Assembly: GCF_003334255.1 (NCBI RefSeq)
Contig: NZ_QOWU01000002.1
Reading direction: 5' to 3' (one strand)
Length of the DNA: 64,000 nucleotides
Source: Escherichia coli
GTDB lineage: Bacteria > Pseudomonadota > Gammaproteobacteria > Enterobacterales > Enterobacteriaceae
Of this stretch, positions 54,417 to 57,488 are shown in pieces. Position 1 is the first letter of the stretch, and each line of letters begins with the position of its first letter. Both the position numbers and the translations under genes were made by a program. The notes beneath the pieces were generated by a model. The model saw nothing but the letters and a program-made list of their open reading frames with translations, had not been told where the DNA came from and searched no databases.

Positions 54417-55532
54417 TCAGGCCGCCACTTCGGTGCGGTTACGTCCGGCTTTCTTTGCTTTGTAAAGCGCCAAATCTGCCGATTTCAACCACTCACGATA
54501 GTGACTCATTTGTGGGTTCAGCGGCGCAACCCCCACACTAATCCGTAAAGTTACCTGTGGCGTATTCGGCAAACGTAATGTATTTAGCCCTTCATGCACC
54601 CGTAACATGGCGGTAATGGCGCTCTCAGCTGGCGTACCGGACATGATTACTGCAAACTCATCGCCGCCAAACCGACCAATCACATCGCTACCGCGCAGGG
54701 TAATTTGTAACTGTCGGGTAAGCGCCACAATCGCTTCATCGCCCACATCATGGCCCCAGGTATCGTTGATGCTCTTGAAATGGTCGATATCGATAATCAG
54801 TAACGTTGCATCGCGATTATGCCGCCGACAGTTATCAAATTCATTGCGTAACATAGTTTCCCAATGACGTCGGTTATACACGCCCGTCATGCCGTCGCGG
54901 GTACTCATGACCTGCAACCTGCGTTTATGTTCCGCCAGTTTGGTTGCCGTCTGGTAGCTGACCCAGCCAAACAGCAGAGGATAAATGACAATAATGGGAA
55001 GGGAGAGCCACCATTCCAGCGGCGCACTATTGAACGACACGGTAATGCCCGTCAGCTCGAGGGTGACAAGGCAGGAAACCACCATCAACACCAGACCCGC
55101 GACAAACAGACGGGGGCCGCCTGCCCCCATCAAATTCAGACACATAATCATCAACATCGCGGTGGAAGGCAGCACGTTTACGCCCATTACGCCTACCCAC
55201 ATTCCCGCTAATACTGCATCGGTTTTTAAGTTGTAAATTTCCCGGCTAAGCGGATCGACGGCCCTGCTCGCTATCTGCCAGGCTAAATGCGGCCAGACGA
55301 ACGCCCAGCCGACCAACACCAGCCACCACCAGCCCGGCGGCGGGTGTGAAACCAGCGTTGAAGCAATCGGTAAGAACATGCCAGCCAGGCCAACCGCACG
55401 GGGTAGTCTGACGCGACGGGCGAAGCGCAGCCCGGACCGCTGATGTTCGTTTTGAGGAGTTAAAGGAGGTTCCTCCCCGTGCGCCGCCGCTTTTTTGAAA
55501 AAGTTTTCATCATTCATTATTTTTGGGAACAT
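54417..55532 (-). CDS. dgcC: Diguanylate cyclase DgcC (AdrA/YaiC), membrane MASE2 domain plus GGDEF domain
   Basis: 371-aa track ORF; hydrophobic N-terminal half, C-terminal GGDEF signature (RFGGDEFAV). Confidence 0.96.
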   Translation of the reverse strand: MFPKIMNDENFFKKAAAHGEEPPLTPQNEHQRSGLRFARRVRLPRAVGLAGMFLPIASTLVSHPPPGWWWLVLVGWAFVWPHLAWQIASRAVDPLSREIYNLKTDAVLAGMWVGVMGVNVLPSTAMLMIMCLNLMGAGGPRLFVAGLVLMVVSCLVTLELTGITVSFNSAPLEWWLSLPIIVIYPLLFGWVSYQTATKLAEHKRRLQVMSTRDGMTGVYNRRHWETMLRNEFDNCRRHNRDATLLIIDIDHFKSINDTWGHDVGDEAIVALTRQLQITLRGSDVIGRFGGDEFAVIMSGTPAESAITAMLRVHEGLNTLRLPNTPQVTLRISVGVAPLNPQMSHYREWLKSADLALYKAKKAGRNRTEVAA

Positions 55533-55633
55533 TCAGAAACAATTTTCCCAAATTATAGAGACGGAGCTAAAGGCAGAAGTATGATATTTCGGGTGAGCCA
55601 TTTTCGTAGCTCACCCGTTAGCACTATCAGGTA

Positions 55634-55954
55634 TCAGGCGGCTTTCTTGAGGCAGGCACTCATAAACTTATTACGATCATCACCTTTCAGAGATTGTTGT
55701 GTTGCTTGATTATTGCATTCGCGCATCTTTTGCTGCTGTGGCGTCAAACTTTTTTCGCCAGGCGCAGACTTGCTGTTCTTCAGGCAATCACTCATGTAGG
55801 TCTTACGAGCATCCCCTTTCAACGCCTGCGCCGTCGCCTGCTGATTACAGGAGGTCATACGCTGTTGTTGTGGGGTTAAAGTTCTCTCGGCAGCGCCGAC
55901 GGTGGTTAAAAAAACCAGACCGAAAAGCAAGGTAACCAGTAATGTTATTTTCAT
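55634..55954 (-). CDS. psiF: Phosphate starvation-inducible protein PsiF
   Basis: Track ORF 55634-55972 trimmed by 6 codons to ATG giving MKITLLVTLLFGLVFLTTVGAA (signal peptide); 106 aa; internally duplicated LTPQQQ...CN(Q/N)QAT...LKGD(A/D)R motif. Confidence 0.92.
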   Translation of the reverse strand: MKITLLVTLLFGLVFLTTVGAAERTLTPQQQRMTSCNQQATAQALKGDARKTYMSDCLKNSKSAPGEKSLTPQQQKMRECNNQATQQSLKGDDRNKFMSACLKKAA

Positions 55955-56028
55955 AGCACCATCCCTCTTCATGTTTTAACCATGAGCGTATGCGCCCGTG
56001 ATCTGCCATTAAGTCTGGTTGCTAACAG

Positions 56029-56066
56029 CAAAAAAACCACCCGGCAGCGAAAATTCACTGCCGGGC
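56029..56066 (-). terminator. Terminator-like hairpin between phoA and psiF
   Basis: On the sense strand CCCGGCAG-TGAATTTTCG-CTGCCGGG followed by TGGTTTTTTT, just after the phoA stop and about 70 nt before the psiF start. Confidence 0.6.
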
Positions 56067-56072
56067 GCGGTT

Positions 56073-57488
56073 TTATTTCAGCCCCAGAGCGGCTTTCATG
56101 GTGTAGAAGAGATCGGTCTGGTCGGTCAGTCCAACAACATTGGCGGCATGCGGGCCATACGCCGCAATACGCAACTGACTGCCGGTATGTTCTTGTGAAT
56201 CCTCTTCGGAGTTCCCGTAACTCATCACCATCACTGCGCCATCTTTGGTATTTAGCGCCTGGGTGAGGCCCGGAGCTTTGGTATCCGGCGCAACAATCTG
56301 GCTGGCGTGGGCGTGATCAGCGGTGACTATGACCAGCGTGTTACCCTCCTTTTTAGCGAATTCCAGCGCCCGTTGTACGGCTTCATCGAGATCGACCGTC
56401 TCGCCAATTTGCCCACAAGGATTCGCAGCATGATCCTGTTTATCGATTGACGCACCTTCAACTTGCAGGAAAAAGCCTTTCTCATTTTTACTCAACAATT
56501 CAATGGCTTTGTCGGTCATCTGCGCCAGGGTTGGTACACTGTCATTACGTTGCGGATTTGGCGTACAGGTGACTGCGGGCTTATCGATATTGCCATGGTA
56601 CGTTGCTTTCGGTCCTAGCCAGCGCACTGGCATATTGCCGTCAGCAAACAGGCCAAGCAGGGGTTTTTGCTGATTCGCTTCCGTCACCGAATTCAGTGAG
56701 GCAGCATCGCTCACCAACTGATAACCACGCGCCTGTGCCTGTTCACGCAGCGTTTTTCCCTGCCATTCACCAGCGGTTGCCGTTTCAGCAAAGGTTTTTG
56801 CGCCGCCGCCAAGCGTAACGTCGGCACGAGCGTTAAGCAGCTGTTCGGTAATCGATCCTTTTCCGCCTTTTTCCAGAGCGTTACCCGGACATTTTTCACT
56901 GGTCGCGCTCGGACCGTAGCATTTGCGCGAGGTCACATGTGCCACCAGCGCAGCGGGCGTGGCATCCTGCAACTCTGCGGTAGAAACGTTACCGGTCGCC
57001 AGACCTGCGGCTTTTGCCATTTCCAGAATCGTTGGGTGATCTTTTTCGTGAATATCGACGCCCAGCGCGCCGTTATAGGTTTTGACACCGGTTGACCAGG
57101 CGGTTGCTGATGCAGCCGAGTCGGTGACGTAGTCCGGTTTGCCGGTTTTTTTATTCAGCGCATAGTGAGTGTATTGCCCGGTAAGCGGTAAGGCATCTAT
57201 ACCTTTAAAAAAGCCGCCCGCACCTTCGGCATAATTACGTGCGGCAGTAATTTCCGAGTCCCCCATCCCATCGCCAATCAGCAAAATAATATTTTTTGCA
57301 GGTTTATCGCTAAGAGAATCACGCAGAGCGGCAGTCTGATCACCCGTTAAACGGCGAGCACCGCCGGGTGCAGTAATATCGCCCTGAGCAGCCCGGTTTT
57401 CCAGAACAGGCATTTCTGGTGTCCGGGCTTTTGTCACAGGGGTAAACAGTAACGGTAAGAGTGCCAGTGCAATAGTGCTTTGTTTCAC
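56073..57488 (-). CDS. phoA: Alkaline phosphatase
   Basis: Track ORF 56073-57557 trimmed by 23 codons to a GTG start giving (M)[31 protein letters not shown]; active-site region DSAASATAW; 471 aa; Pho box about 60 nt upstream. Confidence 0.93.

Follow-up and report, generated by a model that had tools for sequence, protein, structure and literature searches.

To judge from its sequence, predicted structure and conservation, the hairpin that follows phoA in Escherichia coli is an ordinary intrinsic (Rho-independent) terminator of that gene. We think it likely that this terminator is leaky and that psiF, the next gene, also has a weak promoter of its own, with psiF taking both inputs. The initial annotation of this DNA had proposed either partial termination that sets the phoA:psiF ratio or a separate psiF promoter. 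Each part of that proposal stands, but the exclusive choice between them does not, as both hold together. Databases and many papers give phoA-psiF as a simple PhoB-controlled operon. The picture described here refines this annotation; it is not a discovery and will not surprise a specialist, and both the phoA terminator and the internal duplication of PsiF (a named Pfam family) are already known biology.

We analyzed a window of 64 kb (64,000 nucleotides) of E. coli DNA. The genes lie on its minus strand in the order iraP, phoA, psiF, dgcC/adrA, according to the list of open reading frames and the RefSeq annotation. The phoA-psiF region of the window is the MG1655 sequence with no differences (for instance, the 151 nt at 55940-56090 are 100% identical to E. 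coli K-12 MG1655), and coordinates were converted as MG1655 = 459235 - window position. A 601-bp query spanning the hairpin had matches in all 5,426 of 5,426 complete E. coli genomes and was covered to at least 80% in 5,422 of them. The two genes that flank the hairpin are:

56073..57488, minus strand: phoA coding sequence (alkaline phosphatase), GTG start at 57488 and TAA stop at 56075-56073, from the open reading frame list and the RefSeq annotation of the identical MG1655 DNA
55634..55954, minus strand: psiF coding sequence (106 aa), ATG at 55954 and stop at 55634, from the open reading frame list, the RefSeq annotation and Pfam

The terminator itself consists of three adjoining parts:

56067..56074, minus strand: spacer and A-tract from the stop codon to the stem (AAAACCGC), including the last two stop-codon bases, from the RNAfold structure
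56039..56066, minus strand: core stem-loop, with the 5' arm at 56066-56055, the loop AUUU at 56054-56051 and the 3' arm at 56050-56039, from RNAfold and covariation
56030..56038, minus strand: GG (56038/56037) and the U7 tract (56036-56030), from the sequence and RNAfold

The initial annotation had placed a GC-rich hairpin with a T-run at 56029-56066, directly after the phoA stop, and this interval covers the stem and T-run exactly. Folding of 56080-56025 with RNAfold gave a 12-bp G+C-rich stem from G56066 to U56039 closed by the AUUU loop. The stem has nine G-C pairs, eight of them in the RNAfold structure, where the bottom pair is G-U. The same structure extends the stem by pairing C56070/C56069 with G56038/G56037, which brings it to the U-run, and adds a helix between the A-tract and the U-tract. 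Between the phoA stop codon and the stem lie 6 nt; from the last T of the run to the psiF ATG it is 75 nt, close to the roughly 70 nt first estimated.

The predicted free energy is -28.5 kcal/mol, compared with -13.6 +/- 2.8 in 200 dinucleotide shuffles (z = -5.39), none of which folded as well. A loose terminator consensus scan of a 4-kb region was uninformative, with 6 sites against 4.8 expected, that is, no excess over chance. A strict scan, limited to stems with 10 or more contiguous pairs and T-runs with 6 or more T in 8 nt, found 8 sites in the 64-kb window against 0.45 expected, and the phoA hairpin has the lowest energy among them.

At the level of sequence, the stem and U-tract have all that defines an intrinsic terminator: a G+C-rich stem (5 bp or more) closed by a loop of 3-8 nt, at least 5-6 U in 8 nt starting 0-2 nt from the stem (here U7 at 56036-56030), and a position 3' of a gene on its coding strand, with the phoA TAA 6 nt away. 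Lambda tR2, trp t and rrnB T1 are canonical Rho-independent terminators from E. coli or its phages. Like them, the phoA hairpin has a 12-14 bp G+C-rich stem, a 4-nt loop and a U7 directly after the stem, follows closely on a stop codon, and is preceded by an A-tract that can pair with the U-tract. We see no structural difference from them, but the phoA hairpin is unusually near the stop codon (6 nt) and has about 40-45% apparent read-through despite its stability.

A REP/BIME or other dispersed palindromic repeat was rejected: the hairpin is present in a single copy in the window at up to 3 mismatches, and the 601-bp query matched a median of one place per E. coli genome. An Rfam 15 scan of 55300-56500 at permissive thresholds found no family at its gathering score for the hairpin region; the sole match, ClpQY_promoter, is at chance level (18.1 bits, with the gathering score at 42, E = 0.34). 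On the opposite strand (plus strand, 56037-56075), TTTTATTT follows the same hairpin, which could therefore work as a bidirectional terminator. We know of no antisense transcript or convergent gene that needs bidirectional termination at this site. Among the papers searched, none describes a "phoA terminator" or gives the hairpin sequence. The terminator is reportedly remarked on in the original phoA sequencing paper.

Conservation of the hairpin was assessed by scanning one genome per species for PsiF, which yielded 80 Enterobacteriaceae loci. About 62 of the 80 have the order iraP-phoA-psiF, and about 17 have iraP-psiF without phoA. A hairpin with a T-run is found at the same site 3' of phoA in about 60 Enterobacteriaceae species (nearly all of the phoA loci), with stem sequences that differ. 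In an alignment of 65 sequences, 88.6% of the cells were paired, compared with 30-56% when the partners were slid by 1-3 columns, and 8 of the 12 stem pairs showed compensatory (both-side) changes. The covariation score was 0.407, against 0.07-0.18 for the slid controls and 0.242 +/- 0.012 for shuffles; none of 500 shuffles reached the observed score. RNAalifold recovered the same helix. The structure has been maintained in evolution, as is expected of a terminator. The T-run keeps 6-7 T among its first 8 nt in 59 of the 65 species, and the spacing from stop to stem is 5-7 nt in 61 of the 65.

Where phoA was lost, the stem has broken down in Salmonella and in several further Enterobacteriaceae lineages (assemblies labelled Enterobacter, Citrobacter or Pluralibacter), which ties the stem to phoA; it is still intact at three phoA-less loci (L065, L076 and L022, the last from C. 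sedlakii). Judged from the alignments, the stem is a phoA-associated structure under selection. The scan found phoA missing between iraP and psiF at L015, L022, L024, L026-L028, L032, L033, L051, L056, L060, L061, L066 and L076. Traces of phoA persist at some loci: the last phoA codons (CTGAAATAA) in E. cloacae-complex genomes, and a remnant of the first 36 codons at L061. These remnants point to repeated loss of phoA by internal deletion that spared the psiF promoter region. In Salmonella, only the 3' arm of the terminator is left.

To what extent transcription passes this terminator can be read from published RNA-seq data. Fitzgerald 2023 (PMC10294691) compared MG1655 with a phoB deletion strain at 0.2 mM phosphate, and reported the following DESeq2-normalised counts for two replicates:

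phoA: wild type 318,602 and 301,623 (219 reads/nt); phoB deletion 1,490 and 1,607 (1.09 reads/nt)
psiF: wild type 36,626 and 28,610 (102 reads/nt); phoB deletion 852 and 659 (2.35 reads/nt)
yaiC (dgcC): wild type 471 and 439 (0.41 reads/nt); phoB deletion 53 and 76 (0.06 reads/nt)

The wild-type means in low phosphate are 310,112 for phoA and 32,618 for psiF. These correspond to a psiF:phoA read density of 0.46, or about 0.40 after correction for read-length edge effects. The gene-level drop from phoA to psiF is thus about 2.2-fold in low phosphate, a value of steady-state RNA that differential decay may shift. In the phoB deletion strain psiF was 43-fold lower, and the nearest PhoB ChIP-seq sites are at 401676 (upstream of phoA) and then at 417093, with none between. 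Because psiF depends on PhoB 43-fold and the only nearby PhoB site is upstream of phoA, the PhoB-dependent psiF RNA comes from the phoA promoter by way of the hairpin, and most psiF mRNA of induced cells is therefore read-through. The densities agree with one half of the earlier proposal, partial termination setting the ratio of phoA to psiF. In steady-state RNA, about 40-45% of the signal appears to pass into psiF, and apparent termination amounts to only about 55-60%; RNA stabilities could move the true efficiency either way.

Mechanistically, transcription of the U7 tract would let the 12-14 bp G+C-rich stem fold and release the majority of phoA transcripts, and the stem would also cap the 3' end of the phoA mRNA. 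Incomplete termination, seen in steady-state RNA, explains how psiF is PhoB- and phosphate-starvation-inducible without a PhoB site of its own. One hairpin, 6 nt from a stop codon, would thereby set a phoA:psiF RNA ratio of about 2.2-2.5:1. Leaky terminators within operons are known to set transcript ratios, for instance in rpsU-dnaG-rpoD and rplJL-rpoBC. As in these operons, a fixed fraction of polymerases would pass the phoA hairpin, and psiF would inherit the regulation of the phoA promoter at a lower level. Unlike them, phoA and psiF are not an ancient functional pair, as psiF and its promoter occur without phoA in about 17 of the 80 species.

At the U-tract (about 403203-403206), no 3' end is listed in the Term-seq data of Adams 2021; with phosphate-replete cultures and phoA repressed, its absence carries no information either way. 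The SMRT-Cappable-seq supplements contain no entry for such an end. The Adams 2021 data also contain an ORF-internal 3' end at 401850 (window position about 57385), about 100 nt into phoA, in two conditions, and a second phoA-internal site at 402024 (about 57211) in a separate supplementary table (file 2). These internal ends hint at premature termination or pausing in uninduced phoA.

A possible cause of the leak is the short distance between the stop codon and the stem. Li et al. 2016 NAR (PMC4824070) showed that the efficiency of lambda tR2 fell from about 0.9 to below 0.1 with a stop codon 5 bp from the hairpin, that uncoupling of translation abolished this repression, and that its cause is the terminating ribosome, which covers about 10 nt downstream of the A site. 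Because the phoA stem lies 6 nt after the TAA at a conserved spacing, it is plausible, by analogy, that the leak is due to the terminating ribosome. With polymerase on the U-tract, a ribosome terminating at the UAA would cover the stem at its 5' base. The phoA hairpin resembles other stop-proximal terminators (the tR2 series of PMC4824070 and the pyrBI attenuator cited there) in having the stop 5-7 nt from the stem. It would differ from the tR2 series in that the repression would be partial (apparent termination efficiency about 0.55), and PhoA, in addition, is a secreted protein. The locus is a clean natural stop-codon-proximal terminator, usable for studying ribosome-gated termination.

The second input into psiF is its own promoter, for which we give the elements below.

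56035..56040, minus strand: position of a putative -35 hexamer, GTGGTT, at a 17-bp spacer, a poor match that overlaps the 3' arm and U-tract of the terminator
56009..56018, minus strand: -10 region, with a C (-13-like) at 56018, the hexamer CAGACT at 56017-56012 and TAA at 56011-56009, from conservation and transcription start sites (TSSs)
56004, minus strand: psiF-proximal TSS (A), from Cappable-seq, U00096.2 402455(+), RRS 11.35, equivalent to U00096.3 403231

For the conversion from U00096.2 to U00096.3 we took the offset to be +776, which rests on phoA being at 400971 in version 2. A block nearly invariant in 80 species, C C A n n C T T A, lies 10-11 nt after the T-run (CCAGACTTA in the window, 56018-56010). 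Each of its fixed positions is 97-100% conserved in 75 distinct sequences (from 81), whether phoA is present or absent. In E. coli MG1655, the Cappable-seq data of Ettwiller 2016 give the TSS at U00096.2 402455(+) with a log2 enrichment of 4.49, which is 26 nt past the T-run and 8 nt past the T of CAGACT. The TSS of Salmonella SL1344 at 437138, 64 nt before the psiF ATG (as cited in PMC7913699), is 7 nt past the same T in an organism without phoA, and that of K. pneumoniae MGH78578 at 368553 (Kim 2012) is also 7 nt past it. With TSSs 7-8 nt downstream in three species, from independent published maps, the conserved block is the -10 element of a psiF promoter. The hexamer lies within the 5-9 nt expected upstream of a primary TSS, and its A at -11 and T at -7 are invariant in the 75 sequences. 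The invariant positions of the block correspond to C-13, A-11, C-8, T-7 and TA at -6/-5, and the variable ones to -10 and -9, as a -10 element should show. Expression agrees with a separate promoter, the other half of the earlier proposal: in the phoB deletion strain, reads are 2.2-fold denser on psiF than on phoA (2.35 against 1.09 reads/nt), and such an excess requires that transcription start downstream of the phoA promoter.

The -35 region is poor. No TTGACA-like hexamer was found at 16-18 bp spacing, where GTGGTT or TGGTTT matches 2 of 6 positions, and a consensus promoter scan called no promoter at the psiF leader. A poor -35 is common in sigma-S or activator-dependent promoters and is not positive evidence for either. 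Even species that lack both phoA and the stem keep the tract TGGTTTTTT, at a fixed 10-11 nt from the -10 block, and this arrangement suggests a double role for the T-tract, in the promoter and in the terminator. In this reading, psiF has a weak promoter that is either constitutive or active in stationary phase, with its -10 CAGACT(TAA) at 56017-56009 and its start at 56004. The promoter is also older and more widely conserved than the linkage of phoA to psiF. A weak further TSS lies at U00096.2 402519, 14 nt into psiF (Cappable-seq).

This promoter is probably of the sigma-S type, given one microarray, a Crl regulon list and a resemblance to the sigma-S consensus. In the microarray, from the non-K-12 strain EDL933, psiF was 73-fold lower in an rpoS mutant, and phoA is absent among the rows listed from that table. 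psiF is also named among the genes of the Crl regulon. For sigma-S, the extended -10 consensus is around TCTATACTTAA, with C at -13 (reportedly in Becker and Hengge-Aronis 2001 and Weber et al. 2005). The psiF promoter likewise has C-13, A-11, C-8 and T-7, then TAA, and a degenerate -35; it differs in having C at -12 and G in place of T at -10. psiF would then integrate the Pho response, through read-through, and RpoS or general stress, through its own promoter. psiF is best treated as having two transcription units, and its level is unusable as a pure Pho reporter. The locus illustrates how a lineage-variable gene, phoA, is wired into the expression of its neighbour.

Two other readings of the hairpin and spacer were weighed against a leaky terminator with a weak psiF promoter. 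The hairpin might be mainly a 3'-end stabiliser or processing barrier: read-through would be near-constant, the transcript would be cut, its phoA part protected, and its psiF part would decay faster. The step from 219 to 102 reads/nt fits termination and differential decay alike, and the 3'-end data come from non-inducing cultures. However, a stabiliser needs no U-tract, yet the 6-7 T are kept in 59 of the 65 species (although the overlapping promoter may constrain the T-run), and the geometry of a canonical intrinsic terminator also argues against a mere stabiliser, which we consider distinctly unlikely. We give even less credence, very little in all, to an efficient terminator followed by a PhoB-dependent psiF promoter in the 75-nt spacer. 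A TSS is indeed present in this spacer, and GCTGTTAGCAACCAGACTT, after the T-run, bears a weak likeness to a Pho box (tandem CTGTCAT repeats), with half-sites that match by eye at 5/7 and 4/7 positions. But the PhoB ChIP-seq data have no peak between 401676 and 417093, Salmonella has the same psiF promoter without phoA, psiF RNA in the phoB deletion strain stays at a basal level, only about 2% of that in induced cells, and the first Pho half-site, unlike the -10 block, lacks conservation between species. We therefore rejected this by-eye match as a Pho box.

The leader of psiF allows a different reading of the conserved block. Its ribosome-binding site is:

55960..55967, minus strand: psiF Shine-Dalgarno region (GAGGGATG), from the sequence, with AAGGATGGTG conserved in the family

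The segment ACCAGACUU is complementary to the psiF Shine-Dalgarno AAGGAUGGU, so the block might be kept as an anti-Shine-Dalgarno element in the read-through RNA rather than as a promoter, with the mapped 5' ends being processing sites. The variant ACCAUCCUU of Kosakonia/Phytobacter forms 9 perfect pairs with the Shine-Dalgarno region, folds of single sequences pair the block with it in most species (-7 to -17 kcal/mol), and the variable positions of the block are the mismatched positions of this helix. Nevertheless, RNAalifold found no consensus structure for the helix, its pairs lack covariation, and the changes GATAGT, GAACGT and GATGAT on the Shine-Dalgarno side are uncompensated. Cappable-seq enriches triphosphorylated ends, and the log2 enrichment of 4.49 at 56004 argues against a processing site. 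The TSSs 7-8 nt from the A-11/T-7 hexamer in three species and the excess of psiF over phoA density in the phoB deletion strain also argue against an anti-Shine-Dalgarno role alone, which we regard as very improbable.

A combined reading, in which terminator, promoter and leader form one overlapping switch that gives two psiF mRNA isoforms of different translatability, is unlikely too, if less so. The read-through RNA would carry ACCAGACUU, which is the -10 element at the DNA level, and pair it with AAGGAUGGU, while RNA from 56004 would start past the block and leave the Shine-Dalgarno free. If this were true, and the leak were ribosome-gated, Pho induction would give plenty of psiF mRNA with damped translation, and RpoS little mRNA that is translated efficiently.

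Apart from the promoter, regulatory inserts that differ between lineages are concentrated in the psiF leader. E. coli and its closest relatives have about 27 extra nt (55966-56000), including a small hairpin (GATCACGGGCGCATACGCTCATGGT). Many other genera (for instance the compact-spacer loci L029, L037, L054 and L079) have an inverted repeat, GTGAA-N2-4-TTCAC, just before the Shine-Dalgarno. An RcsB box (TGGGATATTTCCCA) is reported at +7 to +21 of the Salmonella leader and is absent from the E. coli leader. Inspected by eye, neither the conserved block nor the GTGAA-N-TTCAC palindrome of some genera fits a CRP-, RcsB- or sigma-E-like site in spacing or core bases, and these readings were rejected. 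According to a 2025 preprint, the sRNA CpxQ represses PsiF by binding near the Shine-Dalgarno.

The internal duplication that had been proposed for PsiF was seen on self-alignment, in which the two halves are 64% identical over 36 aa. It corresponds to two copies of the Pfam PsiF_repeat (PF07769), at aa 27-59 (E = 7e-18) and aa 71-103 (E = 1.6e-15). PsiF is the founding member of this family and shows no difference from it. These repeats and the hairpin that follows the gene are:

55778..55876, minus strand: PsiF_repeat 1, Pfam PF07769
55646..55744, minus strand: PsiF_repeat 2, Pfam PF07769
55591..55616, minus strand: hairpin 3' of psiF (GGGTGAGCTACGAAAATGGCTCACCC), with no U-tract on either strand, at the 3' end of the psiF mRNA

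Term-seq (Adams 2021) places 3' ends about 5 nt beyond this hairpin on both strands (window positions 55586 and 55623). The psiF 3' end is at MG1655 403649(+), which is window position 55586. The strong end at 403612(-), with a score of 23,469, is antisense to psiF (window position 55623) and points to an abundant unannotated transcript antisense to the 5' region of dgcC. The read density of dgcC is about 0.4% of that of psiF in induced cells, which makes the U-less hairpin after psiF a far tighter boundary than the canonical-looking phoA terminator. A strong Cappable-seq TSS (U00096.2 402757, MG1655 403533(+), window position about 55702, RRS about 58) lies within psiF, in its 3' part and 170 nt before dgcC/adrA starts, and is probably the dgcC promoter, set within the psiF coding sequence. 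In one complete E. coli genome (strain S6, NZ_CP107134.1, locus L082), a deletion that begins about 17 nt into psiF (from window position about 55937 downward) takes out psiF together with the N-terminal half of adrA; the annotation gives adrA there as a pseudogene.
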